From a virus (taxonomy: Duplodnaviria; Heunggongvirae; Uroviricota; Caudoviricetes): a DNA stretch of 38,422 nt. The notes beneath the pieces are model-generated. The model was given only the letters and a program-made list of their open reading frames with translations, made no database searches and had not been told where the DNA came from. The translations under genes were made by a program, and so were the position numbers. The stretch covers positions 1-38,422 of IMG/VR virus record IMGVR_UViG_2925919700_000005. The stretch is one strand, 5' to 3'. Positions 11-38,422 of this stretch are shown here, one piece after another; the first letter of the stretch is position 1; each line of letters opens with the position of its first letter.

Positions 11-44
11 CCAATAAAAAAGCCCCATCACAAGGACAGGGCTT
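11..44 (-). terminator. Rho-independent terminator downstream of the 63..368 gene
   Basis: Inverted repeat AAGCCC (20-25) / GGGCTT (39-44); on the minus strand it is followed by a T-run (A-run 13-20 on plus). Confidence 0.5.
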
Positions 45-62
45 AGGAATCAATTACTTACA

Positions 63-368
63 TCACTTAATATCTTTCATTTTACGGATACGCGCGCTTG
101 CTTCCGGTAGTTCATCCAGTGTTACGTGATAAGCAAGCATACAGACAGGAGTCGGATCAAATCCCTCATGAGTATTGATCAGATGGCTATTCCCGCCTTT
201 AAACTCATCCTGTCCATCCCACATAGCGTACACGTCATCTTCTGCTACATAGATAATCAATCCAATAGGGGAGTTAGTAAGCTGGAAGATGCAGCCAGTA
301 GAATCAATGCGATGTTCCCGAACGTCATCAACAGTTTCAAAGTCAATCTTAATATCTTTAGTCTTCAT
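63..368 (-). CDS. hypothetical protein (101 aa)
   Basis: ORF with GAGGG Shine-Dalgarno ~7 nt upstream of the ATG (minus strand) and a terminator after the stop; no recognisable family. Confidence 0.55.
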   Translation of the reverse strand: MKTKDIKIDFETVDDVREHRIDSTGCIFQLTNSPIGLIIYVAEDDVYAMWDGQDEFKGGNSHLINTHEGFDPTPVCMLAYHVTLDELPEASARIRKMKDIK

Positions 369-5406: not shown

Positions 5407-5502
5407 TAAATTTCTATCATAAATAAAAATGTTCCGGTGGTGATGCCGGAACTAGGAGGACCAATATCATTATCGCAAAACCGTTTAAGGGGAATTACTA
5501 CT

Positions 5503-6333
5503 ATGAATACTGTTACTGCTATGAATACTGCTGTTAAAACTGCTTCCGTGTCTCTGGTTGTTGATAACACCAAACCGCTGACCATGTCTACTTTGCAGAT
5601 CGCGCAAATGATGGATCGCGTAGACCGCCACCGTGATATTAAGCGAACTGTTGACCGTCTCGTTTCTTCCGGTGTAATTGTCCACACGCCAACGGCGCGC
5701 GAACAACTGGAAGATAAATTTGGTCGTTCTCGTGAAATTGAAGTTTATCTTCTTGATGAACGTTCGTCATATATTGTTGTTGCTCAAATTTCGCCAGAAT
5801 TTACCGCTTTTATCGTTGATGAATGGAAGCGACTGAAAGAAGAAAATGAAAAACTTCGCTCTACTCCGGTTAACCCGTATGCAGACTTTGAAGAAACCGA
5901 TTGGATCGAACTGGCATTAAAGAAAACTCGCGAAAATAAAAAGCTGATTGAACTTCATGTTCGCAAATCCGTAGATAGCCATTCAATGACCCGTCTGTTA
6001 GGAGCTAAAAAGGGCGCTACGAAGGTTAAAGAAGCACTGACGGCCTTGCGTACTGCTGGCTACATTGAGCGCGTCTACGATGAAAATAACAAGCCGTGTG
6101 GGTATGTTGCTAATGACTCTTCTCTGTCTTTCTGCCGCATGAATGCTCACTACCAACTTGAGTTTACTGTTGATGTTCTTCCTGTGCTGGTTGAATTGGG
6201 TGTTCTGGAAGAAGAACAAAAAGCAACTCTGAATCTTCCTAAGCCGAACAACACTATTCTGATTCAAAATAAAGCTGCTAAACAGATTCGTGAATCAGGT
6301 AACGTAATTTCCCTTGTTGATTTTGGGATCTGA
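5503..6333 (+). CDS. Rha-family phage regulatory protein / antirepressor-like
   Basis: N-terminal segment LTMSTLQIAQMMDRVDRHRDIKRTVDRL matches the Rha-type DNA-binding pattern as I recall it; start chosen at ATG 5503 (AAGGGG SD) rather than the track's GTG 5437. Confidence 0.55.
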   Translation: MNTVTAMNTAVKTASVSLVVDNTKPLTMSTLQIAQMMDRVDRHRDIKRTVDRLVSSGVIVHTPTAREQLEDKFGRSREIEVYLLDERSSYIVVAQISPEFTAFIVDEWKRLKEENEKLRSTPVNPYADFEETDWIELALKKTRENKKLIELHVRKSVDSHSMTRLLGAKKGATKVKEALTALRTAGYIERVYDENNKPCGYVANDSSLSFCRMNAHYQLEFTVDVLPVLVELGVLEEEQKATLNLPKPNNTILIQNKAAKQIRESGNVISLVDFGI

Positions 6334-15317: not shown

Positions 15318-18300
15318 ATGCAGTCGATCCAATTTAAACGAACAAATGTTTCTGGCAAAAAACCAACGCCGGAACAATTACAGGTCGGTGAGGTGGCAAT
15401 CAACCTTAAAGACCATGTTATTTTTACCAAAGACCGAGATCATGAAGTAGTTCAAATCTCTGTTTCTCCTGAAACTCACGCGGCACTAGAATCTAAAGTT
15501 GATGCTAACAAACAAGAATTGGATAGCACAATTGCAGTAAATGACCGCAATATTCACGCTAAAGTAGATGAAATTAAACAAACTACTGATTCTACTATCG
15601 CAGCAAATCACGCAGAAATTAACAATAAAGTTGATGTAATTAAACGCGAAACCGACGCGACAATCGAGGCCAATAAAAATAAAGCTGCTTCCGATCTTGC
15701 TGGTGTTAAAGCTGAATTGTCGGATACTATCAACGCTAATAAAAATGCGGCTGCTGTAGCAACTCAGGAACTGGACACCCGCATCAATAAAAAAGTTGAT
15801 GATATTAAATCCCGTACTGATGCAACCATCGCAAGCAATCACAAAGCAATCAATGACAAGGTTGATTTGATTAAGGCAGAAACTGACCGCACTATCGCAG
15901 CAAATCAAGCCTATGCGGAAAATCAGTTAACTGACACCTACAATAACCTTACTGGTGTGATTGCAGCTAATAAGCAAGAGGCAGCGGATAGCGTCGCAGC
16001 ATTAACCCGTGATGTTGAAGCCAAAAATTCAGCAATTCATAGCAAAGTTGACAATAACAAGTCTTACACTGATTCTGAACTTGCACGTTTAGAAAGCCGT
16101 ATTGATGCAGCCGATGGATCTGCTGATGGCAAGTACATCAAAAAACACGTAAACACTTATACTGATGGTTATTTGCTGTCTAAGACCGCAAACTATTTTG
16201 ATGATCCAAATGCGCGTAATCTTAATTACTTTGGTGCATTCCGCATGAATGACCTGGCGGGTCATATTGCAATGATCTTGCATGTTCCGCATCCATCTGG
16301 TGTTAATCATGCTCGTGGCTTTGAGTTCACTTATGGGTCTAATCCGGTTCATACGGTAAGAACATACGGCTATGATGAATTGGGTCATTTGGCATATTCT
16401 CACCGCATGTATCATGAAGGTGATAAACCTACTCCTGCCGAAATTGGCGCATATTCGAAAGCAGAAATTGACCGACTGTTCCAGAAGACGCTTAATTTTG
16501 GGATCGAGGGTGGTTGGTTTAAACTAGGCACTTTGACAATGCCACAGCAACACGGTCGTAGTGCTAAGATCCGCTTAGTTGGTGGTAACGGTTATAACGT
16601 CGGGATGAATGGACAAGCCAATATTATCGAATTGGTGATTCGATGCGGCAACAATAGCCCGAAAGGTGTTGTATTCAATGCGTATTATACTATTTGGCAT
16701 TATGAACAACATTTTTGCGCTATTCCAACCGATGGCGACAATTACGATCTTTACGCTTACTACGGTGCACATACAGGATTTGTTTTAGCAGAATATCAAG
16801 TTTCTTCCGGTGGTGTTTCTTTAAACCTGTTGGATACTCCTGAATATCTGGGTGGTGAAAAACCTGTTGCAGATGAAATTTTTGATGCTCTTAACATTTC
16901 ATCGTTCACTAACTTTAGCAACCGTGGAACGTTAAATTTTGCGGGAAACCATCAAGGCCAATATGACATTGAGCATTTGAACGAACAACAAACTAACAGC
17001 AAAAAGATGTTGCGTCGCTTCCGTAGTTCTGCTCCTGCCACTATCTGGCATGAGACAGTTGATGATAACGCATATCGTCTTGCTACTGGATACGAAGATA
17101 CAAATCAGGAATTATTGCTGACAGCAACAACCGGGTTACATGTCAAGAGATTAACATTGGATGGTGGTGCTGCTGGTGGAAATGCTGGTATTGATATTCG
17201 TCGAGGACCAAACGAATCAAGCCATTTTAATTTTATGGATTATCGAACTGGTCAAGATGTTCGTAATGGCTGGTTTGGTTTTGGTGATTTGACGACCAAA
17301 GATTTTATTTGGTGGAACGATAACGGTCAAAACTCGATAAACTTGATCGAAAACGGTGAATTGCATATTACTGGCGGTAAAGGCCAGAAAATTGTAATGA
17401 ATAGCGAAGTTGCATTATCTGAAAATGCTCGTTTGGCTGTTAAAGGTGGCAATTATGGCTTAATTTTTAGAAATGATGGTACTGGTTTCCATATACTGAC
17501 TACCGATTTAAAAGATTCTTTTGGAAATTGGAATAATCGTAGACCATTCAGCTATAATTTTGATGATGGTGGACTATATTTAGGTGGCACTGAAACTGCT
17601 CGTTGTTTGCATCTGGGAATTGATGGTAGCACCCGTCTTGAGGAGAACTTAGTTTTCAGGGCGGGATCTCGTCAATCAATGGACTATATTGAAATGATCC
17701 ATTGGGGTAACAGTAATACCGCTCGTGACAACGTTTTGAGTATGAAAGACTCGAAAGGATTCCTTGCTGAATTTGAACGCGTGGGTGGGACTAACGGCGT
17801 TAAAACCAGATTCTTTGGTGAAACCTTCACTGACGGTACATTATACCTAAATCAGATGAATAATAGCTCTGAACGATTCTCTATCAACAATTGGGGAAAT
17901 TCAGAAGTTGGACGCGCGGCAGTAATGGAAATCGGTGATTCCAAAGGTTATCACTTCTATACTGAACGCAGGACAGATAACAGTTTGGCGTTTGATGTTG
18001 CTGGCGCTTTTACTGTGCATGGACCTAACGGAATAACCATCAAAAACTCAACTGGTGCACGCCATATCTGGTTTAGAGATGATAGCGATGCAGAAAAGGC
18101 TGTTATCTGGGCTACAGATGAGGGTATTTTACATATACGAAATAATCATGGGGGTTCATTTAGTCATCACTTCCAGGGTGCAATGATTAAAGCGGGAGAG
18201 CAAGTTCCTTATAATAGTGAATACGCTCTTATCCGTGGTGAGGTTTCTGGTGGTGCATGGGATGACTGGCGCAACCGTCCTGCTGGTATTCTCTTAGATT

Positions 18301-18839
18301 GTCAGGATTCACATACCCAAGCATATTCAATTTGGAAAGCAACTCATTGGGGTGTTGATCATCTTGCGGCAATGGGTGTTCATGCTGGCGGTGGTCAAGC
18401 TACCGTAATGATGCATATGAACAAAGGCGGCTGGTATTCATGGTCTGCAAATGGTGATTTCACATCTAGTGCGTCGGTTTACTGTAACGATGTTTATATT
18501 CGTTCCGACCGTCGTCTGAAAATTAACGTTGAAGACTACGAAGAAAATGCGGTAGATAAGGTAAATAAACTAAAAGTTAAAACCTACGATAAAGTTAAGT
18601 CTCTTTCTGACCGCGAAGTCATCGCACATGAGATTGGTATTATCGCACAGGATTTACAAGAAATTTTACCGGAAGCTGTTAGCACTTCTAATGTCGGATC
18701 TCTTGATAACCCAGAAGAGATTTTAACAATTTCTAACTCTGCTGTGAACGCGCTTTTAATTAAAGCGGTCCAAGAAATGAGCGAAGAAAATAAACTTCTT
18801 CGTGAACGTCTTGCTGCAATTGAAGCTAAATTAGGGTAA
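15318..18839 (+). CDS. long tail fibre with C-terminal S74 intramolecular chaperone (autoproteolytic) domain
   Basis: N-terminal ~250 aa of ~22-residue repeats (KVDxIKxxTDxTIAANxxxIN); C-terminal YIRSDRRLKINVEDYE...LLIKAVQEMSEENKLLRERLAAIEAKLG is the S74 signature with a predicted cleavage at S|D. Confidence 0.85.
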   Translation: MQSIQFKRTNVSGKKPTPEQLQVGEVAINLKDHVIFTKDRDHEVVQISVSPETHAALESKVDANKQELDSTIAVNDRNIHAKVDEIKQTTDSTIAANHAEINNKVDVIKRETDATIEANKNKAASDLAGVKAELSDTINANKNAAAVATQELDTRINKKVDDIKSRTDATIASNHKAINDKVDLIKAETDRTIAANQAYAENQLTDTYNNLTGVIAANKQEAADSVAALTRDVEAKNSAIHSKVDNNKSYTDSELARLESRIDAADGSADGKYIKKHVNTYTDGYLLSKTANYFDDPNARNLNYFGAFRMNDLAGHIAMILHVPHPSGVNHARGFEFTYGSNPVHTVRTYGYDELGHLAYSHRMYHEGDKPTPAEIGAYSKAEIDRLFQKTLNFGIEGGWFKLGTLTMPQQHGRSAKIRLVGGNGYNVGMNGQANIIELVIRCGNNSPKGVVFNAYYTIWHYEQHFCAIPTDGDNYDLYAYYGAHTGFVLAEYQVSSGGVSLNLLDTPEYLGGEKPVADEIFDALNISSFTNFSNRGTLNFAGNHQGQYDIEHLNEQQTNSKKMLRRFRSSAPATIWHETVDDNAYRLATGYEDTNQELLLTATTGLHVKRLTLDGGAAGGNAGIDIRRGPNESSHFNFMDYRTGQDVRNGWFGFGDLTTKDFIWWNDNGQNSINLIENGELHITGGKGQKIVMNSEVALSENARLAVKGGNYGLIFRNDGTGFHILTTDLKDSFGNWNNRRPFSYNFDDGGLYLGGTETARCLHLGIDGSTRLEENLVFRAGSRQSMDYIEMIHWGNSNTARDNVLSMKDSKGFLAEFERVGGTNGVKTRFFGETFTDGTLYLNQMNNSSERFSINNWGNSEVGRAAVMEIGDSKGYHFYTERRTDNSLAFDVAGAFTVHGPNGITIKNSTGARHIWFRDDSDAEKAVIWATDEGILHIRNNHGGSFSHHFQGAMIKAGEQVPYNSEYALIRGEVSGGAWDDWRNRPAGILLDCQDSHTQAYSIWKATHWGVDHLAAMGVHAGGGQATVMMHMNKGGWYSWSANGDFTSSASVYCNDVYIRSDRRLKINVEDYEENAVDKVNKLKVKTYDKVKSLSDREVIAHEIGIIAQDLQEILPEAVSTSNVGSLDNPEEILTISNSAVNALLIKAVQEMSEENKLLRERLAAIEAKLG

Positions 18840-20615: not shown

Positions 20616-21944
20616 CTGAGAGATCCCCTCATAATTTCCCCAAAACGTAACCATGTGTGAATAGATTTTGAGTAAGCAGGGTTGCAGCCACGAGTGAGTC
20701 TTCCCTTGTTATTGTGTAGCCAGAATGCCGCAAAACTTCCATGCCTAAGCGAACTGTTGAGAGTACGTTTCGATTTCTGACTGTGTTAGCCTGGAAGTGC
20801 TTGTCCCAACCTTGTTTCTGAGCATGAACGCCCGCAAGCCAACATGTTAGTTGAAGCATCAGGGCGATTAGCAGCATGATATCAAAACGCTCTGAGCTGC
20901 TCGTTCGGCTATGGCGTAGGCCTAGTCCGTAGGCAGGACTTTTCAAGTCTCGGAAGGTTTCTTCAATCTGCATTCGCTTCGAATAGATATTAACAAGTTG
21001 TTTGGGTGTTCGAATTTCAACAGGTAAGTTAGTTGCTAGAATCCATGGCTCCTTTGCCGACGCTGAGTAGATTTTAGGTGACGGGTGGTGACAATGAGTC
21101 CGTGTCGAGCGCTGATTTTTTCGGCCTTTAGAGCGAGATTTATACAATAGAATTTGGCATGAGATTGGATTGCTTTTAGTCAGCCTCTTATAGCCTAAAG
21201 TCTTTGAGTGACTAGATGACATATCATGTAAGTTGCTGATAGGTTTCCAGTTTTCCGCTCCTAGGTCTGCATATTGTACTTTTCCTCTTACTCGACTTAA
21301 CCAGTACCAACCCAGCTTCTCAACGGATTTATACCATGGCACTTTAAAGCCAGCATCACTGACAATGAGCGGTGTGGTGTTACTCGGTAGAATGCTCGCA
21401 AGGTCGGCTAGAAATTGGTCATGAGCTTTCTTTGAACATTGCTCTGAAAGCGGGAACGCTTTCTCATAAAGAGTAACAGAACGACCGTGTAGTGCGACTG
21501 AAGCTCGCAATACCATAAGCCGTTTTTGCTCACGGATATCAGACCAGTCAACAAGTACAATGGGCATCGTATTGCCCGAACAGATAAAGCTAGCATGCCA
21601 ACGGTATACAGCGAGTCGCTCTTTGTGGAGGTGACGATTACCTAACAATCGGTCGATTCGTTTGATGTTATGTTTTGTTCTCGCTTTGGTTGGCAGGTTA
21701 CGGCCAAGTTCGGTAAGAGTGAGAGTTTTACAGTCAAGTAAGGCGTGGCAAGCCAACGTTAAGCTGTTGAGTCGTTTTAAGTGTAATTCGGGGCAGAATT
21801 GGTAAAGAGAGTCGTGTAAAATATCGAGTTCGCACATTTTGTTGTCTGATTATTGATTTTTGGCGAAACCATTTGATCATATGACAAGATGTGTATCTAC
21901 CTTAACTTAATGATTTTGATAAAAATCATTAGGGGATTCATCAG
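20616..21944 (-). mobile_element. IS10 insertion sequence, complete (1329 bp)
   Basis: Ends CTGAGAGATCCCCTCATAATTTCCCC (inside end, 20616) and ...AAAATCATTAGGGGATTCATCAG (outside end, 21944); length 1329 bp; encodes the 402-aa IS10 transposase. Confidence 0.97.
20629..21837 (-). CDS. IS10 transposase
   Basis: 402-aa translation MCELDILHDSLYQFCPELHLKRL...HGYVLGKL matches the IS10/Tn10 transposase as I recall it; start is 107 bp inside the outside end. Confidence 0.97.
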   Translation of the reverse strand: MCELDILHDSLYQFCPELHLKRLNSLTLACHALLDCKTLTLTELGRNLPTKARTKHNIKRIDRLLGNRHLHKERLAVYRWHASFICSGNTMPIVLVDWSDIREQKRLMVLRASVALHGRSVTLYEKAFPLSEQCSKKAHDQFLADLASILPSNTTPLIVSDAGFKVPWYKSVEKLGWYWLSRVRGKVQYADLGAENWKPISNLHDMSSSHSKTLGYKRLTKSNPISCQILLYKSRSKGRKNQRSTRTHCHHPSPKIYSASAKEPWILATNLPVEIRTPKQLVNIYSKRMQIEETFRDLKSPAYGLGLRHSRTSSSERFDIMLLIALMLQLTCWLAGVHAQKQGWDKHFQANTVRNRNVLSTVRLGMEVLRHSGYTITREDSLVAATLLTQNLFTHGYVLGKL

Positions 21945-32010: not shown

Positions 32011-32364
32011 ATGTTAAGTAAGCATTTTTCTCGCAAGGAATTTAAATGTAAATGCGGAAAATGTGATTATGATACAATCGACGCTGAATTACTGGTGATT
32101 CTTGAGGATGTACGCGAACACTTCGGGAAACCAGTAATTATTAACAGTGGGAACCGTTGTCCGACTCATAACAAGAATGTAGGCGGTGCAACCAACAGCT
32201 ATCACGTTCGAGGTCGTGCGGCTGACATTGTGGTCAAGGGTGTCTCCCCTGATATTGTCCATGCTTATCTTGATGGGAAATATCCTACTCAATACGGCTT
32301 AGGCAAATATAAAACCTTTACGCATATTGATTCCAGATCAAAAAAATCACGGTGGAATGGATAA
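32011..32364 (+). CDS. endolysin, peptidase M15 family (zinc D-Ala-D-Ala carboxypeptidase / L-Ala-D-Glu peptidase type)
   Basis: SYHVRGRAADIVV (S-x-H-x-x-G-x-A-x-D) and a downstream THID motif form the Zn-binding H-D-H pattern; N-terminal FSRKEFKCKCGKC is typical of this family; AGGGGGTAAT-ATG. Confidence 0.8.
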   Translation: MLSKHFSRKEFKCKCGKCDYDTIDAELLVILEDVREHFGKPVIINSGNRCPTHNKNVGGATNSYHVRGRAADIVVKGVSPDIVHAYLDGKYPTQYGLGKYKTFTHIDSRSKKSRWNG

Positions 32365-32396
32365 AACAAAAGCGCCTCTAGTGGGCGCTTTTTTGT
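32364..32396. terminator. Bidirectional rho-independent terminator between convergent genes
   Basis: AAGCGCC-TCTAGT-GGGCGCTT flanked by an A-run upstream and a T-run downstream. Confidence 0.7.
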
Positions 32397-33886
32397 TATA
32401 TGGCAATTGTTTTAGTTGCATAGCTGAACTTGTCGGTTAGATAATAGCGGATTCTCTCAAGTGCATGTTTTACCGCATAATTTTTATGCTTGACTTTTCC
32501 GTTACGACCGAATATACACAGATGATCGATAAGATCCCAGACCGTTGCAATGTCTTTCGAACCATGTTTACGCAATGCACGACCGATACTCTGACGAACG
32601 ATAGTTGATTCCTTCACGGGATGACCGAAAATAACATGGTGCAAATTCTTAATTGAAACACCAGTAGAGAAAACACCATAGGATGCAACGCAAATGATCC
32701 CTGTTTCCCCTTCCGCTAATTTCTTAAATTCATCACGTTCTTCTGTCTTAACTCCACCGTCAATATAATAAACCTTGTCGTGTACCTTCTGTAACGCGTC
32801 ATACATAAGTTTTCCGTGCTTAGTATTGCGGAACATCAGGAATACGTTTTCTCCCTTCTTAGCGAGTTTTAGCGCCAAATTACAAGCAAACTTATTTCGT
32901 CGTGGATTAGACGTAATATACTTGATCTCTTCCGCATATTCTCTACCCTTAACCGCGCTACATTCCTCATCGGTATAACGAAGGAAAAGACAGTTAATTT
33001 TCAGTTTTGTCACCTGCCCTTCTTCCATCAGGCGGTCAATACTCACGATCTTAGAAATATCACCGAAAAGCCCGACATACTGCATTAAATGGCACTTTGA
33101 TTCTTTCGGGGAACCAGTCATGCCGATCTTAAATTGGCAATGATTCATTCCGTTAATGATATTGGTAATATTTTTGGCACTAGCCTTATGCGATTCATCA
33201 ACTATCAACATTCCATATTGTTTGAACCATTCAGGAGGCATCTTGCACGCTGATTGCCAGGTACTAACCGTGATTAACCTGTCTCCCGGATGTTTCCCGC
33301 TACCACTCATCATTGTATGAATTGCTTCATAAGGGAATAGCCTATAATCGATGAAATCATCCCTCATTTGAACCACTAGCGATGTAGTAGGGACAATGAT
33401 TAACACTTTTCCGGTGTAATGCTCTAAGTACCAACGAGACAGCATACAAGCAATCAATGACTTACCCGCACTGGTAGGAAGAACCAGCATTCTACGGCGA
33501 TTATGAATACCCTGAAAGACTGCCTCCCTTTGATACCAGTAAGGATTGATTTTATTGGAACCGGAATACACTTCTAGGGAATCAATCCATTCATTAATCG
33601 CGTCTTTGGTTACATCTTCCTTCTCAAGCAATCGCGGGTCAATCCAGACTGAATAGCCCATATTTTTAACGAAGACACCCAACGTTTTTAATAGTCCAAT
33701 TGGTAGGGTATTTTCATGCGTAAACAGTCTTATTCGTCCATCCCAGCCGGAATACTTGTAGCGGGGGCTAAACCTAGCCCCTTCAACCTCAAACGAGAAA
33801 TAATCCCTTAATTCCATTCCGATAGAAGGAGAGCAATCAACCTTAACGAAACTGTAATCTTGAAAATGAATTTTAATATCTTGCAT
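32396..33886 (-). CDS. UvsW-like SF2 DNA helicase
   Basis: Walker A LPTSAGKS, IIVPTT, DExH box IVDESH and VWDLIDH; overall resemblance to T4 UvsW as recalled; start set to ATG 33886, overlapping the upstream stop. Confidence 0.8.
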   Translation of the reverse strand: MQDIKIHFQDYSFVKVDCSPSIGMELRDYFSFEVEGARFSPRYKYSGWDGRIRLFTHENTLPIGLLKTLGVFVKNMGYSVWIDPRLLEKEDVTKDAINEWIDSLEVYSGSNKINPYWYQREAVFQGIHNRRRMLVLPTSAGKSLIACMLSRWYLEHYTGKVLIIVPTTSLVVQMRDDFIDYRLFPYEAIHTMMSGSGKHPGDRLITVSTWQSACKMPPEWFKQYGMLIVDESHKASAKNITNIINGMNHCQFKIGMTGSPKESKCHLMQYVGLFGDISKIVSIDRLMEEGQVTKLKINCLFLRYTDEECSAVKGREYAEEIKYITSNPRRNKFACNLALKLAKKGENVFLMFRNTKHGKLMYDALQKVHDKVYYIDGGVKTEERDEFKKLAEGETGIICVASYGVFSTGVSIKNLHHVIFGHPVKESTIVRQSIGRALRKHGSKDIATVWDLIDHLCIFGRNGKVKHKNYAVKHALERIRYYLTDKFSYATKTIAI

Positions 33887-34455
33887 TAGTTCCACTCCAC
33901 ACTTGCAATATTCTTTATATTGTTTAGTGATTTATTGCAGTAGTGGAATGTTTCAGTTTTGCCGTATTCAATCCCGCCTATACCCACATCCAGTAATCTC
34001 TTTATTGCTCTTTCAGTGGCTAAAGCATGTTTCATTGATGGCATTTCACCAGCAAAGACAATATCAAAGTTATGACCGGGATTGCGTACACCCAGATTAA
34101 TGCGTCGCTTGATGATTGACTTTGTTACACCAAATTTACCAATATCCCCTGATTTCATTACATAGAGATAAGGCACACCCGCTTTATATTGAAAGTAATC
34201 ACTTTTGAGACATGCACAGCGTTTACCTTCATTAAGCAGGTTGGTAGCTGATTTGTCGGCTCTATTGCCGCATCGGGTACATGTAAGAGCAATTCTTGAA
34301 TGAAGCCCTTTAAACTCACCCAGAAAGCCATGAAAGACTAACGGTAAGTCCTTCTCTTTGATGTGAGTCAGAATGCGTTGTTCTAATGCCGATGGAGTTA
34401 CAGCACGGGAGGATTTAGGAGTAAAAACAATATCTTTAGCCATTACTGGAATCAT
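33886..34455 (-). CDS. GIY-YIG-like (T5orf172-type) protein with N-terminal zinc ribbon; possible homing endonuclease or DNA-binding nuclease
   Basis: CTRCGN...CAC Cys cluster followed by YLYVMKSGDIGKFGVTKSIIKRR (GIY-YIG-like Y-x-Y...K-F-G-x-T...R pattern). Confidence 0.5.
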   Translation of the reverse strand: MIPVMAKDIVFTPKSSRAVTPSALEQRILTHIKEKDLPLVFHGFLGEFKGLHSRIALTCTRCGNRADKSATNLLNEGKRCACLKSDYFQYKAGVPYLYVMKSGDIGKFGVTKSIIKRRINLGVRNPGHNFDIVFAGEMPSMKHALATERAIKRLLDVGIGGIEYGKTETFHYCNKSLNNIKNIASVEWN

Positions 34456-34609
34456 ATAGACCTCACTTTTTTAACTTATAGGCATAACCTCAATATGGTT
34501 GGTTTGGGATTTAGGGTCGCGTATTATACACATTCAGATAGAGAATGCAATAGTAAGACAATTTTCTCTAATAAATAGTAGTGAGCTTATTATTTTAGAG
34601 GAAACTACT

Positions 34610-35785
34610 ATGAAACTTGCTTACGCTGCCGAAATTCCTTTTGTTAAGAAAACTCGCGGTTTATCGCCGGAAGAGTACCAACAACGAATCATCGCTAAAC
34701 TGGAACCTGCTTTCGTATTTGGTGGATTTATCCTACCGTGGAAGGGTAATCACACTTACTTTCGAATCTACAATTTAGATACACAAGAATATAAGGACTA
34801 CAAATTACGCAAACTGGAAGATACTAACGGGGGTGAGTTACTCCAGACTGAAAAGGCTGTATGGTTGAAAATGGAATCTCGTTGTAATGAGAAGGGAAAG
34901 AAATTCCTCGGATGGCAAGGAGAATGGAAAGGGCGCAACAAGACAAAATCCCGTGTTTTGTGCCCTGAACACAATCAAATCATGACGCCATCTCTATTAC
35001 ATGCTCTCAAAGATGATTTCGATTTTGATTGCAAAATCTGTATGGCTGAAAAATCCCAACGGGTAAGAAGTGGCAAGACTTTTGATGAAGTTATTAAGGA
35101 CAAAGAGACAATCATCAATGCACGTTGCGAGAGTACGCCTTACACCTTCAAAGGATTCATCATAAACACCCCACACCTAAAGGATGTTAAATTTAAAACC
35201 TATTGCAAGACACATAATCACGAATGGGAATCTCATTTAAGATGTGCTGATTCTTTCACTTGTCCGCTTTGCATTAAAGACCAACTGGTGCAACTGTCTA
35301 ACCGGACTTATCAGGGTAAGGCTAGTTTCTATATTCAATTATTAGATGACAAATTTATTAAATTTGGAATCACTACCCGGAAACCAGAAGAACGAATGAG
35401 AGAGCAAACCAGAAAGAGCAACTTCACTCACCGCTTAATCTTTACTCATGAGTTTGAGGATGGTTGGAAAGCCGTTGATTTAGAGCATGAAGTAAAACAA
35501 CGCTTCAAGACTCATGCAGCACCCTACAAAGATTTCAAGGATGGATGGTCGGAAACTCTGACTATTGATGAGTTACCACACTTACAGCAACTGGTTTATG
35601 ACTACCTAACCAATCAACCGGACGAGGCTAATATGTGGGTATCCCAGAAAGATGTATTTGATGACGATACATTCAAGCTACATACTCACTTCTACGGCAT
35701 CAATAAACCGGAATTTTTCTGTATTGATGACGACAGTCCTGATTTAATGGATGAATACTTTAATACTCTCTTAGACGCTGTCTAA
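34610..35785 (+). CDS. multi-zinc-finger protein with C-terminal GIY-YIG/T5orf172-like domain
   Basis: Several C/H clusters (CPEHN...CKIC; CKTHNHEWESHLRCADSFTCPLC) then FYIQLLDDKFIKFGITTRKPEERMREQ; TAATAAATAGTAGTGAG box 25 nt upstream; start set at ATG 34610 (track start is TTG 34499). Confidence 0.55.
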   Translation: MKLAYAAEIPFVKKTRGLSPEEYQQRIIAKLEPAFVFGGFILPWKGNHTYFRIYNLDTQEYKDYKLRKLEDTNGGELLQTEKAVWLKMESRCNEKGKKFLGWQGEWKGRNKTKSRVLCPEHNQIMTPSLLHALKDDFDFDCKICMAEKSQRVRSGKTFDEVIKDKETIINARCESTPYTFKGFIINTPHLKDVKFKTYCKTHNHEWESHLRCADSFTCPLCIKDQLVQLSNRTYQGKASFYIQLLDDKFIKFGITTRKPEERMREQTRKSNFTHRLIFTHEFEDGWKAVDLEHEVKQRFKTHAAPYKDFKDGWSETLTIDELPHLQQLVYDYLTNQPDEANMWVSQKDVFDDDTFKLHTHFYGINKPEFFCIDDDSPDLMDEYFNTLLDAV

Positions 35786-35858: not shown

Positions 35859-37538
35859 TTAAATTCCAAATTCCTGTAATGGACCTGGTATTTCCTCTTC
35901 TGGTTTCCAGTTCTTATCTGTCAGCATGTCTAAACATGGATGCAGAACAAGCCCGTTACTCTCCAGAATCTGCCTATCATTGATAGTTTTCAAATCGACA
36001 AAGATTTGTCCTTTCCTCGTTCCTCTTGAATTTTCTATTACAACTCTCTGGGTCTTTCCATCGATGTATTCCAGTACAAACAAGTTTTTGTTTCTGTCAA
36101 TCCTGCTACACCCGATCCGCTTTAGAGCTTGCTTAATCTTAAACCGGACCTTTAGTCGTTCCTCGTTGTAAACATCTTCTAAATCAAATTCTGCGAGCTT
36201 CTCCCAGCCTTGAGAGTCAACAGAATACATTTCCTCTTCTGCCATCTTGATCTGATTGTAGAGTGTTTCACGCTCGCTATTGAGGGTAGTAATCTGATCG
36301 GCTAGTTCCTTCGTTGCTCCTGTCATAGCAGAAAGGGCAATCAGGTTATCAATCTTGCGTGATATTTCATCAACCTGTACTTTCAACGCCGGAACCGGAT
36401 TAGCCTTATCCTCAGCAATCCAGATTTTATCAGCCAGCAATTGCAATACAGCTTTCTCTAATTGATCACCTCGAAAACTCCAGTTTGGATGCTCGCAATC
36501 AAGTCTACGTGAACGGGTCGCATCACATGTATAACGATACTGGTCAGAACGTTTGTTCGTTCCCTTCACTTTAACCATAGCGCAACCGCAATGATCACAT
36601 TTCAATAGGCCAATACCACTAAGCAGGGGGATCGGTTTAACTTCTTCCTTGTCTCCAAAGTTCCATGCTCTAGCACCAATATTTTTCTTAAGGTGATAGA
36701 ACGTAGCATCATCAATAACACGAGGGTAATAATCCTTTAACTCATAGTTAACACCATCAACAGAGACCTCCTTGATACCAATCAAAGCGCGGGTATGAAA
36801 CAACCTTTCAACCATTGCCCGTGACCATTTTGAATGCTTCTTGTTGCTTACTGCTGGTGGTGGTGCATATGTCTCGTTAAGGTGATCCAGTATTTCGGCG
36901 GTTGAACGTCCATTCTTCCGTAATTCCACAATCTCCTGAACAACAGGGAAGTACACCGGATGAGGCAGCACATAACCGGAAGTGGTATCAGTCCACCACA
37001 TATTCTTTCCAACTTCCTCGATTGCCACTGCCGGATTCTGGGGATTTTCTTGATGCGATTTAATCTTAATCAGTGCGCTTGAATTAGTACGATTGCGCTT
37101 AGTCTGGCTTTCCTCATTACCACGGATGAATAAAAGGATGGAGAACATCAGGTCCATCGGGTTAGCGGTAACAGTATCCAGCGAGTAGATCTTGTTATCC
37201 ATGCCAGTAACAATGGTTATCCCCCTACGGATTATCGAAAGGAATAACTCCTGCGCACTGACAATATCGGCACGGGATAAACGGTCCAAGTTTTCAATGA
37301 ATAGCCAGCTACCAACAGGAACGGATCTACCAATTGCATCAAGGAAACGAGATAGCGCCCCTGTTTTAGAGTTAGCACCTTTAAACGCAGATACACCCAG
37401 ATCCTGATAATCATTTACCAGTTCTAAGTCATACTTTGCCGCAATCTCTCTCGCCATCCTGATTTGTCGTTCATAACTCGAACCATCACTCTGACGCATA
37501 GACGAGAAGCGAATATACGAATATAGTTTAGTTTTCAT
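35859..37538 (-). CDS. large serine recombinase (resolvase/invertase-type catalytic domain + recombinase domain + zinc ribbon)
   Basis: N-terminal YIRFSSMRQSDGSSYERQ (catalytic Ser motif), ENLDRLSRAD, Cys cluster CDHCGCAMV...YRYTCD, C-terminal coiled coil; 559 aa. Confidence 0.85.
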   Translation of the reverse strand: MKTKLYSYIRFSSMRQSDGSSYERQIRMAREIAAKYDLELVNDYQDLGVSAFKGANSKTGALSRFLDAIGRSVPVGSWLFIENLDRLSRADIVSAQELFLSIIRRGITIVTGMDNKIYSLDTVTANPMDLMFSILLFIRGNEESQTKRNRTNSSALIKIKSHQENPQNPAVAIEEVGKNMWWTDTTSGYVLPHPVYFPVVQEIVELRKNGRSTAEILDHLNETYAPPPAVSNKKHSKWSRAMVERLFHTRALIGIKEVSVDGVNYELKDYYPRVIDDATFYHLKKNIGARAWNFGDKEEVKPIPLLSGIGLLKCDHCGCAMVKVKGTNKRSDQYRYTCDATRSRRLDCEHPNWSFRGDQLEKAVLQLLADKIWIAEDKANPVPALKVQVDEISRKIDNLIALSAMTGATKELADQITTLNSERETLYNQIKMAEEEMYSVDSQGWEKLAEFDLEDVYNEERLKVRFKIKQALKRIGCSRIDRNKNLFVLEYIDGKTQRVVIENSRGTRKGQIFVDLKTINDRQILESNGLVLHPCLDMLTDKNWKPEEEIPGPLQEFGI

Positions 37539-37550
37539 ACCATTTCCAAA

Positions 37551-37587
37551 ACAAAAAGCCCCTACCGCGTATTATAACGATAGGGGC
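37551..37587 (-). terminator. Rho-independent terminator immediately upstream of the recombinase start
   Basis: GCCCCTA ... TAGGGGC with a T-run on the minus strand (A-run 37551-37557 on plus). Confidence 0.55.
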
Positions 37588-37603: not shown

Positions 37604-37849
37604 TTAATATTTCTTTCCAGTTAGTTTTGCATCACGTTTATTAATATCCTCGATATGACTCCATACACACGCAGTAATAAAGTCGTCATCGTCACCAACT
37701 CCGGCAACCTGTGCTAATTCAGTACACAGTTGATTTAAAGAAGGTGCAACGGCAGCACGCTTGACACTATCACCCTGTACATATTGTTCGGCATTTGCAG
37801 CACCAACCAAACCCAGAGCAAGAACGATACCAGCGATAATCTTTTTCAT
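37604..37849 (-). CDS. small secreted (periplasmic) protein with signal peptide
   Basis: MKKIIAGIVLALGLVGAANA|EQ: classic signal peptide with AxA cleavage site; two Cys in the mature part; AGAGGA SD. Confidence 0.65.
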   Translation of the reverse strand: MKKIIAGIVLALGLVGAANAEQYVQGDSVKRAAVAPSLNQLCTELAQVAGVGDDDDFITACVWSHIEDINKRDAKLTGKKY

Positions 37850-37890
37850 AATTGAATCCTCTTTGAATGAATTACGATATATTTATATCG

Positions 37891-38016
37891 TTAAAAATTG
37901 ATGCTAATTACCAGACCAAACACAACCGCACCAATCAAATCAATCCAGTTAATACACAATCCGCTATATTCTTTCTTGAATGTCTTGGATGAAATGCCAT
38001 CATGAAATTGTTTCAT
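37891..38016 (-). CDS. small membrane peptide (41 aa), below the ORF-track cutoff
   Basis: GGGGTGAG SD; translation MKQFHDGISSKTFKKEYSGLCINWIDLIGAVVFGLVISINF with a C-terminal TM helix. Confidence 0.4.
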   Translation of the reverse strand: MKQFHDGISSKTFKKEYSGLCINWIDLIGAVVFGLVISINF

Positions 38017-38022
38017 TGCTCA

Positions 38023-38100
38023 CCCCATACTAACGACAAGACAAGAAAGACTAATCATAGTTGTGAGACTTCCTCCCACGAATGAGATAAAAGCTAACAT
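38023..38100 (-). CDS. small hydrophobic peptide (25 aa), below the ORF-track cutoff
   Basis: GGAGA SD; translation MLAFISFVGGSLTTMISLSCLVVSM (25 residues; stop 38023-38025 included); a terminator-like hairpin (38115-38135) lies upstream on the minus strand. Confidence 0.35.
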
Positions 38101-38152
38101 GTTTGATTCTCCATTTAAAAAGCGGTGGGAATTGCACCCACCAAATTAGAAA

Positions 38153-38422
38153 TTACTTCTTGCTAATAAACTCTTTGTGGATAAAATCTAAGACTTCCTT
38201 TAACTTCTTATCGGTGTCAATCATCGCCGGAAGTTCTTCTTTAATATCGCGAGGAAGATACACATTACCTTTCCAGAACAAGCAACCACATTGAGCAATC
38301 GAATAGCTGAACATCCATTCACAATCTTGTTCTATCTCCCAGAATCTAACCTGCTCATCTTCGAGTTGAAGTTCGATTCCACGGCGGCGAGCATAGTTAT
38401 GGATTGCTTTGGTAATGTTCAT
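38153..38422 (-). CDS. hypothetical protein (89 aa or longer; start at or beyond the window edge)
   Basis: ORF runs to the last base of the window; Cys-rich (CEW...CGC); may be 5'-truncated by the window. Confidence 0.45.
   Translation of the reverse strand: MNITKAIHNYARRRGIELQLEDEQVRFWEIEQDCEWMFSYSIAQCGCLFWKGNVYLPRDIKEELPAMIDTDKKLKEVLDFIHKEFISKK

Follow-up and report, generated by a model that had tools for sequence, protein, structure and literature searches.

What do two very short open reading frames (ORFs), lying between an integrase gene and the right attachment site of a prophage, contribute to the phage that carries them? The question is raised by the virus record IMGVR_UViG_2925919700_000005 (Caudoviricetes), analysed here over its whole length of 38,422 nucleotides (hereafter, the window), which is essentially one complete prophage. 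Between positions 37604 and 38152, on the minus strand, the window carries an ORF of 26 codons, one of 41 codons and one of 81 codons, the last encoding a secreted protein. An earlier note on this DNA had treated the three genes as one module. That grouping gave way once related loci were compared: the comparison strongly supports a reading in which the 26- and 41-codon ORFs would form an invariant core, and the 81-codon gene would be one interchangeable occupant of an adjoining cargo slot.

The 26-codon ORF (38020..38100) encodes the peptide MLAFISFVGGSLTTMISLSCLVVSMG and is preceded by a Shine-Dalgarno (SD) motif, GGAG, at 38109..38112. Its product contains no charged residue at all and has a grand average of hydropathy (GRAVY) of 1.76, values that strongly support its prediction as essentially one uncharged membrane helix spanning the bilayer once. 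The 41-codon ORF (37891..38016) encodes MKQFHDGISSKTFKKEYSGLCINWIDLIGAVVFGLVISINF; its SD motif, GGGGTGA at 38020..38026, overlaps the stop codon of the 26-codon ORF. This second product joins a polar basic head to a C-terminal segment whose best 19-residue hydropathy window reaches 2.12, and its prediction as a single-pass membrane micro-protein with a C-terminal helix is likewise strongly supported. Both chains stop within 1-3 residues of their own helix. Pairing with the 16S rRNA tail was calculated at −6.4, −6.0 and −5.8 kcal/mol for the starts of the 26-, 41- and 81-codon ORFs, respectively, against a mean of −1.8 kcal/mol over all 1350 ATG triplets of the window, placing the three starts roughly among the best 5-8%. 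The proposal that each tiny ORF has its own ribosome-binding site was thus borne out. The junction between the two tiny ORFs reads TGA-GCA-ATG (a 3-nt gap), an arrangement that makes translational coupling from the first to the second plausible. From the 41- to the 81-codon ORF coupling is not tight, because the 41 nt between them contain a separate SD motif and a palindrome with 7-bp arms. The earlier note was right about the strand, position and hydrophobic nature of the two peptides but gave the shorter one 25 residues, one codon too few. Its description of them as unannotated holds for RefSeq, where the annotation of a near-identical prophage omits both, but not for a few GenBank records in which the 40/41-aa ORF is entered as a hypothetical protein. 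The 26-aa ORF had no entry of its own in the records seen and appeared solely within a 68-aa fusion. The latter is encoded by a European Nucleotide Archive (ENA) contig of 747 bp (P0017), in which the TGA stop of the 26-codon ORF is changed to TGG and the two micro-proteins are joined in frame. In the window, too, the two ORFs share one frame, with UGA-GCA alone between them. A fusion made by read-through of the UGA was considered and rejected, the frame relation not being conserved in loci L003, L032, L036 and others (L numbers designate loci of the collection described below). An AlphaFold2 (AF2) model of the natural 68-aa fusion, built from a single sequence, gave two long helices and was uninformative.

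Whether such short ORFs are genes at all was assessed on related loci from five E. coli genomes, 25 IMG/VR records, 10 metagenomes and 10 Logan assemblies, the latter reached through divergent homologues of the 41-mer. A 39-41-codon ORF is intact in 46 of the 46 loci tabulated, a figure to be read in light of the fact that the loci were found through the 41-mer peptide, which favours its presence. Upstream of it, a hydrophobic ORF of 25-27 codons is found in 45 of the 46; L024 carries a frameshifted form of 29 codons. Length is therefore kept within 25-27 and 39-41 codons across the relatives. In nine mutually divergent loci, the proposed frame is the only one free of stops for both tiny ORFs, the other frames each being broken in 5-9 of the nine. 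The proportion of synonymous differences (pS) exceeds that of nonsynonymous ones (pN) in both genes: 0.46-0.86 versus 0.18-0.43 for the 26-mer and 0.44-0.75 versus 0.11-0.31 for the 41-mer. The bias is extreme in the first 16 codons of the latter (pN at most 0.10, pS up to 0.65), where changes are near-exclusively synonymous and include a switch between TCC and AGC serine codons. The 26-mer remains recognisable across relatives by the motif ..L[IL]SF......T[IM].S[FY]VY.VV.A. and none of its window-type forms, nor any form in the frame comparison, contains a charged residue; the variant of L042 has one K and one E. The host sequences flanking L032, L033 and L036 (csgEFG/ycdYZ) are only about 78% identical to those of E. 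coli, so that these hosts probably lie outside E. coli, likely in another enterobacterial genus. Since the frame conservation in the nine loci and the excess of pS over pN go beyond chance, we consider with high confidence, on these comparative grounds, that both tiny ORFs code for protein and are under purifying selection. ORFs on the opposite (plus) strand, such as that at 37867..37992, are interrupted in divergent loci and were discarded as candidates.

The 41-mers form a family with a common head, M[KR]QFHxGISSKT[FY], followed by a variable hydrophobic C-terminal helix; M1, Q3, F4, H5, G7, I8, S9, S10, K11 and T12 are invariant. The family is defined by a length of 39-41 residues, this N-terminal motif, the C-terminal helix and a position upstream of a serine integrase that targets ycdX, all of which apply to the window protein. 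It appears to be a small family. An exhaustive HMMER search of 1.84 billion representative sequences returned only nine clusters of 41-mers, and a word-indexed search returned 24 clusters at 90% identity, or nine at 50%. Every context that was looked up adjoins a serine integrase gene, which is also the constant downstream neighbour of the two tiny ORFs taken together. Tblastn of the 41-mer against phage records produced chance matches only (E of 3 or more), a scan of metagenomes recovered close relatives only, and a search of species-representative genomes with peptide and integrase profiles yielded nothing beyond a stray 512-bp contig, L037 (JANCAF010000145.1), in an assembly of the actinomycete Actinacidiphila cocklensis. 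That contig is 100% identical to part of the window integrase and is probably a contamination. At the level of known families, the 26-mer, the 41-mer and the 81-aa protein matched nothing in Pfam (E ≤ 1), NCBIfam (E ≤ 10) or PADLOC; matches in PHROGs were confined to the signal-peptide level, with E around 0.1. The region was also without a match in DNA similarity searches, near and distant, of 50,697 phage records, and Rfam at E ≤ 1 gave no RNA family, its sole match being a chance one of rli38 to a terminator. These searches strongly support the view that the micro-proteins constitute a small family, apparently restricted to one lineage of ycdX-integrating enterobacterial prophages.

The third gene behaves differently. 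The 81-aa protein (37604..37849, minus strand; SD motif GAGGA at 37857..37861) does begin with a cleavable signal peptide, as had been claimed, and the peptide is of the signal-peptidase I type: codons 1-20 (37790..37849) encode MKKIIAGIVLALGLVGAANA, followed beyond the cleavage point by EQ, with a basic n-region, a hydrophobic core and an A-x-A site (ANA/EQ, the slash marking the cut). The mature product would have 61 residues. There is no lipobox and no cysteine at +1: the signal ends LVGAANA/EQ, the first cysteine is residue 42, and the match to the lipoprotein model LPAM_1 (15.2 bits) falls under the cut-off of 20. Homologues were found in E. coli only, in 15 clusters at 73-96% identity, all unnamed; Cys42 and Cys61 are invariant in 16 homologues. 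The AF2 model is a two-helix hairpin with a mean predicted local distance difference test (pLDDT) score of 67, rising to 74-91 over residues 31-80. A Foldseek search of the Protein Data Bank (PDB) with this model gave histone-fold proteins as the best match, at a meaningless E of 4.2. Homology with secreted two-cysteine proteins of 75-80 aa encoded by some relatives was examined and rejected, as profile comparison aligned the signal peptide only (probability 4%).

The 81-aa gene is absent or replaced in many of the 46 tabulated loci. In L032-L035, L048, L050 and L051 the 40-aa gene is followed directly by the terminator and by the integrase gene, whose start is 63-67 nt away. Elsewhere, the slot 3′ of the 41-mer gene holds the 81-aa gene, either alone or accompanied by a gene for a 113-aa membrane coiled-coil protein, or genes for secreted proteins of 137-139 or 130-134 aa, or for a 348-aa cytoplasmic protein with a repeated cysteine-rich motif. 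Insertions are not confined to this slot: genes for a 62-aa cytoplasmic protein, the 75-80-aa secreted two-cysteine protein, or both, lie between those of the 26-mer and the 40-mer in some relatives, and lipoprotein or OmpW/Lom-like barrel genes lie upstream of the pair. Specifically, an OmpW/Lom-like outer-membrane barrel gene is found upstream of the 26-codon ORF, in the operon proximal to the attachment (att) site, at L051:2616-3353 and L052:2698-3630, and a lipoprotein gene (phrog_13472) in the same operon of L033-L035. The cargo genes for the 81-aa and the 137-139-aa proteins (the latter in L004 and L005) have a common 5′ untranslated region and an identical 20-residue signal peptide, with 93% identity over 109 nt. 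Beyond the cleavage site the similarity is lost, to return about 12 nt short of the terminator. A break in homology placed exactly at the signal-peptidase site suggests exchange of cassettes, with the signal-peptide coding sequence serving as the joint. Alignment of these loci strongly supports the conclusion that the exact points of cargo exchange are the signal-peptide cleavage site and the terminator.

Directly after the 41-codon ORF, at the upstream edge of the slot, lies the 16-nt palindrome CGATATAAATATATCG (37875..37890), read from the sequence, which can form a weak hairpin (−5.7 kcal/mol, z = −3.1) and is present wherever a cargo gene follows. L036 carries a doubly compensated version, CGTTATAAATATAACG; the palindrome is imperfect in L052 and in variants beginning TGATATA. 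A role for it as promoter of the cargo gene was rejected, the best −10 candidate being TATAAA without the final T, with no −35 motif and no call by the promoter scan. At the other border, a strong intrinsic terminator (37558..37587, minus strand; 11-bp stem and T-run, −20.3 kcal/mol, z = −4.8) immediately precedes the integrase gene. Every lineage retains it, and in L033 the stem has undergone a compensatory change (GCCCCTC...GAGGGGC). Its loop contains a perfect TATAAT in most lineages, and in L052 the scan calls TTAATA-16-TATAAT (10/12); the integrase gene may therefore have its own promoter, nested in the terminator. A third hairpin, G+C-rich and followed by CTTTTTAAAT, lies at 38123..38143 of the minus strand (terminator scan; −11.4 kcal/mol, z = −2.9) and looks like a terminator or attenuator between an 89-aa gene and the 26-codon ORF, which starts 22 nt after the hairpin and its T-run. 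This element is kept in loci of the E. coli type and is absent from the divergent loci, in which the genes overlap directly. The complete order on the minus strand is thus the 89-aa ORF, the hairpin with its T-run, the 26-codon ORF, the 41-codon ORF, the palindrome, the 81-codon ORF, the terminator and the integrase gene.

From where is this operon transcribed? In divergent loci, the ORFs from the att-proximal end down to that of the 40-mer overlap or abut their neighbours (ATGA or TAATG), which suggests a single operon driven from the att end. The first gene of this operon, the 89-aa ORF (38153..38422, minus strand; phrog_6147, E 3.7e-32), encodes a cytoplasmic protein of unknown function, and its position is a variable one, occupied by genes for 128, 145, 80 or 71 aa in relatives. 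Its ATG is the final triplet of the window, so that its SD motif and the attP arm lie just beyond. A simple consensus scan, which weak or non-sigma-70 promoters could escape, found no minus-strand sigma-70 promoter (at least 9/12) between 37850 and 38422. attP was rebuilt from both prophage junctions in E. coli strain UTME-12 (L031:5027-5047 and L001:10628-10690). The crossover is a TT common to the phage sequence ...ACGTT/GGGATT... and the host sequence ...ATTT/CGGG.... The rebuilt site contains TTGACT-17-TATCAT (10/12), placed some 30 nt before the start of the 89-aa ORF, with the −35 motif on the left-end arm and the −10 motif on the right-end arm, both halves lying outside the window. The window contains 0.13 matches of this quality per kb. 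In the E. coli attR, where only the −10 half remains beside host DNA after integration, nothing reaches 9/12. A prophage with a different left end retains the same P′ arm, including TTGACT. On the other side of attP, an intrinsic terminator with a 10-bp stem (44..20, minus strand), directly after a 101-aa gene (63..368), insulates that gene. A promoter that would be complete only in the circular phage, and split by integration, is consistent with these data; we hold this to be possible, with odds somewhat short of even.

We propose that the micro-proteins act at the cell envelope. The 26-mer and the 41-mer would be made together through their conserved translational coupling and would insert in the inner membrane. 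By the positive-inside rule, the head of the 41-mer would face the cytoplasm, and its invariant residues would bind a conserved partner on that side of the membrane. The pair would interfere at the envelope in the manner of the small inner-membrane exclusion proteins with which temperate phages block DNA entry, while the variable secreted, lipoprotein or outer-membrane cargo would add further envelope functions; in the circular phage, the operon may be driven by the attP-spanning promoter. To this explanation as a whole (conserved core micro-proteins, swappable cargo, envelope role and split promoter) we assign a probability of about 45%. An envelope theme does run through the neighbourhood, in the form of secreted proteins of 75-80, 130-139 and 81 aa, a lipoprotein (phrog_13472 / phrog_10370) and OmpW/Lom-like barrels, and a slot given over mostly to envelope-targeted proteins makes exclusion or receptor masking the most plausible class among the functions offered in the earlier note. 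A precedent is gp15 of phage HK97, a small protein of the inner membrane that keeps the incoming genome out (PMC3594210). Superinfection exclusion as the function of the pair itself is a tentative assignment and more probably wrong than right.

Several observations weigh against this proposal. Pfam, PHROGs, NCBIfam, PADLOC and the PDB fold search revealed no resemblance, in sequence or in fold, to exclusion proteins or to any other family; among the named exclusion families, YebO/gp15, Imm, SieB, Cor and Llp gave no match in libraries whose coverage of each family was unchecked. Exclusion genes are usually accessory and variable, so that a pair universal in its lineage, with an invariant head, would better fit a core phage function. 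The G+C content of the locus, 0.38 against 0.42 for the window, is not that of foreign DNA. If the attP-spanning promoter were the sole one, the genes would be weak or silent in a stable lysogen, contrary to classical prophage-expressed exclusion, and the hairpin with T-run stands before the 26-codon ORF with no minus-strand promoter found downstream by the consensus scan. The promoter itself is not secure: attR itself scores 9/12 in L052-type hosts, so that the contrast between attP and attR is not clean, and conservation of the promoter-like match could be explained by integrase binding because the match lies inside the integrase binding site.

A first alternative is that the pair serves the establishment of lysogeny or the takeover of the host, being made from the circular genome at about the time the integrase is needed and acting on a conserved host inner-membrane machine, for instance as an inhibitor of FtsH like lambda CIII, or of division or transport. 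As core genes, the two would be expected next to int in every member of the lineage, as they are; a cytoplasmic head that does not vary implies that its partner is conserved, only attP keeps the best promoter candidate intact, and no CI-like repressor or other lysogeny-control gene is recognisable among the window ORFs scanned. But neither peptide resembles CIII, Kil or known regulators in Pfam, PHROGs or NCBIfam, a strong terminator parts the operon from int, whose separate promoter is suggested by the TATAAT of the loop, and the argument is purely analogical and leans on a weak promoter inference; we regard this role as unlikely. A similar standing falls to the idea that the 26-codon ORF is mainly a leader acting in cis, coupling delivering ribosomes to the next start and the nascent helix perhaps bringing the mRNA to the membrane, so that a downstream protein whose only helix emerges after termination can insert; the 41-mer would then be the sole effector. 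This would account for the way the 26-codon ORF ends 0-5 nt from the next start, or overlaps it (ATGA), in every lineage and whatever follows, be it the 40-aa, the 62-aa or the 75-80-aa gene. It would also suit a 26-mer whose sequence is less constrained than that of the 41-mer (pN 0.18-0.43) while length and hydrophobicity are kept. The persistence of the 26-mer motif and the excess of pS over pN suggest, on the contrary, that the peptide itself matters, the downstream ORFs of the window have SD motifs of their own, and membrane targeting of the mRNA is without direct support. The two ideas can be combined into a core lysogeny system, in which the 26-mer would serve as a leader for membrane targeting, the 41-mer would control, through its head, a step of lysogeny or integration at the inner membrane, a promoter existing only with an intact attP would switch both, and the two genes and the int terminator would be the fixed recombination anchors of a hotspot swapping exported proteins at the signal-peptide cleavage site. 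We think this combination as doubtful as its parts. A role of the 41-mer as recombination directionality factor (RDF) is also unlikely: the gene does adjoin int, but the protein carries a C-terminal membrane helix, and PHROGs gave no RDF match for it.

The remaining explanations fared worse. Toxin-like membrane peptides had been suggested in the earlier note, and with its basic head and hydrophobic tail the 41-mer could be imagined to depolarise the cell as a type I toxin or an abortive-infection effector; in size and composition the pair resembles toxins of the TisB, ZorO, Ibs and AapA types. A type I locus should come with an antisense RNA, yet neither a plus-strand promoter nor a terminator was found over 37850..38150, nor any small RNA in Rfam. 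Nor is this a stand-alone locus with a long 5′ untranslated region: the genes overlap within an operon and have other genes inserted between them in relatives. With no toxin family in Pfam (E ≤ 1) or NCBIfam (E ≤ 10) and no PADLOC match, membrane damage seems improbable. Lysis timing, another earlier suggestion, or any accessory lysis role (holin, antiholin, spanin), is far more so. In its favour, the proteins are small and envelope-targeted, the 113-aa cargo of relatives has a weak match to Rz-like spanins (phrog_739, E 0.0024), and no spanin is recognisable beside the M15 endolysin gene. That gene (Peptidase_M15_3, 32011..32364), however, is 5 kb away on the opposite strand, the locus forms its own unit beside int, and the three products do not look like holins or spanins. 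The 81-aa protein lacks a lipobox, its gene is missing from many relatives, and the 26- and 41-mers cannot span the periplasm because they have essentially no periplasmic domain. Just as remote is the notion that the tiny ORFs are untranslated products of chance in a regulatory spacer. They are short, omitted by RefSeq and flanked by conserved hairpins, but their frame is kept across roughly 35-60% protein divergence with pS above pN, their lengths, starts and SD motifs are conserved, and the other frames are interrupted.

The rest of the prophage is of a familiar kind. In strain UTME-12 it splits ycdX, whose 5′ part lies to its left and whose 3′ part lies to its right; of 5,426 complete E. 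coli genomes, 56-57 carry a near-identical copy. A search of the literature on ycdX prophages found no paper on this phage lineage. Pfam and PHROGs recognised terminase, portal, a protease-capsid fusion, tail genes, the M15 peptidase endolysin and the large serine recombinase, or integrase (35859..37538, minus strand; 559 aa; Pfam Recombinase and Zn_ribbon_recom; phrog_95, integrase, E 3e-63). For the ORFs scanned, which were not all those of the window, neither library gave a match to a CI-like repressor, to Cro or to a replication module, so it is not evident how this lineage controls lysogeny. The matches did include a DEAD/UvsW-like helicase (32396..33895), two endonuclease-like genes (33886..35785) and a Rha/anti-repressor-like protein (5437..6333). 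Inside the tail-gene block, a 402-aa ORF (20629..21837, minus strand) is covered by a match of 98.7% to phage record CL707, which is annotated there with an immunity region and an IS10 transposase; the ORF looks like an IS10 insertion in the prophage. Between about 16181 and 19800 (the 1173-aa tail-fibre ORF at 15318..18839 and sequences downstream), stretches are 78-96% identical to genes for the distal subunit of T-even long tail fibres, for example that of vB_EcoM_IME340. The matches fall on the side tail-fibre gene and are a case of tail-fibre mosaicism that links a temperate siphophage with virulent myophages.

Genome annotation routinely overlooks small membrane proteins, which, in the phages where they have been studied, often decide who infects the cell. 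Here, two mostly unannotated micro-proteins are conserved across host genera and tied to a serine integrase, and the invariant head of the 41-mer, 13-15 residues long, should ease identification of a partner. The slot illustrates how exported cargo can be exchanged with a shared signal peptide as the recombination joint, and the attP-spanning promoter, if true, would be a simple physical switch by which the circular and the integrated states of the phage are distinguished. Current ideas are not overturned; what is gained is a testable family and a neat case of a prophage end where a fixed core adjoins exchangeable cargo.

Among known systems, one close in kind is HK97 gp15, a YebO-like moron product: a small single-pass inner-membrane protein of a temperate E. 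coli siphophage, which acts from the membrane without blocking a receptor, as proposed here for the pair (PMC3594210). The two differ in that no sequence similarity is found (Pfam, PHROGs), and in that gp15 comes from a patchily distributed moron of the tail operon with its own promoter and terminator, whereas the 26/41 pair consists of two coupled peptides, is universal in its lineage and adjacent to int, and has no promoter of its own that we could find. Held against the definition of a moron, the locus shows no promoter of its own by consensus scan but does have its own terminator (37587..37558); patchiness applies to the 81-aa gene, absent or replaced in many relatives, not to the universal pair, and the G+C content is 0.38 against 0.42. 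The wider class of phage-encoded envelope proteins that stop incoming DNA includes P22 SieA, T4 Imm and P1 Sim, located in the inner membrane or the periplasm, which the pair would resemble in its proposed role. All three exceed the micro-proteins in size, some of them cross the membrane more than once, their sequences show no relation to those of the pair, and none consists of a 26- plus a 41-residue peptide. SieA is reported to be expressed from the prophage and bound to the membrane (PMC10883804).

The 81-aa cargo protein recalls Cor of phi80, N15 and T1-like phages and Llp of T5, both of them exported phage proteins that work in the envelope and measure about 60-80 residues. A lipobox cysteine marks those two as lipoproteins; the 81-aa protein, in contrast, has a signal-peptidase I site (A-N-A/E), no lipobox and no sequence match to either. 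Spanins, for their part, combine a lipobox component, a long periplasmic coiled coil and a location in the lysis cassette, none of which is seen here. With type I toxins (Hok, TisB, ZorO, Ibs, AapA) the micro-proteins have in common a hydrophobic nature and a length in the range of 19-50 residues, as well as, in some cases, a coupled leader ORF (mok/hok); judged by composition they are small hydrophobic peptides, but signals of an antisense RNA and membership in a toxin family are missing. Lambda CIII is a small protein encoded upstream of int in the early-left operon and affects the establishment of lysogeny via the membrane protease FtsH. It differs from the 26- and 41-mers in being amphipathic and peripheral, with 54 residues and no similarity in sequence. 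In build, the pair resembles MgrB, AcrZ, KdpF, MgtS/MgtR and SidA, single-helix inner-membrane proteins of 26-50 residues, which differ in being chromosomally encoded, in having a known partner and in showing no homology to the pair (NCBIfam, E ≤ 10). By analogy with MgrB, AcrZ, SidA and gp15, the pair probably acts by binding a larger membrane protein. The 26- and 41-mers are a new, narrowly distributed family of an already known general kind, the single-helix membrane micro-proteins, and the more unusual features of the locus are its cargo-slot architecture and the possible promoter split at attP.

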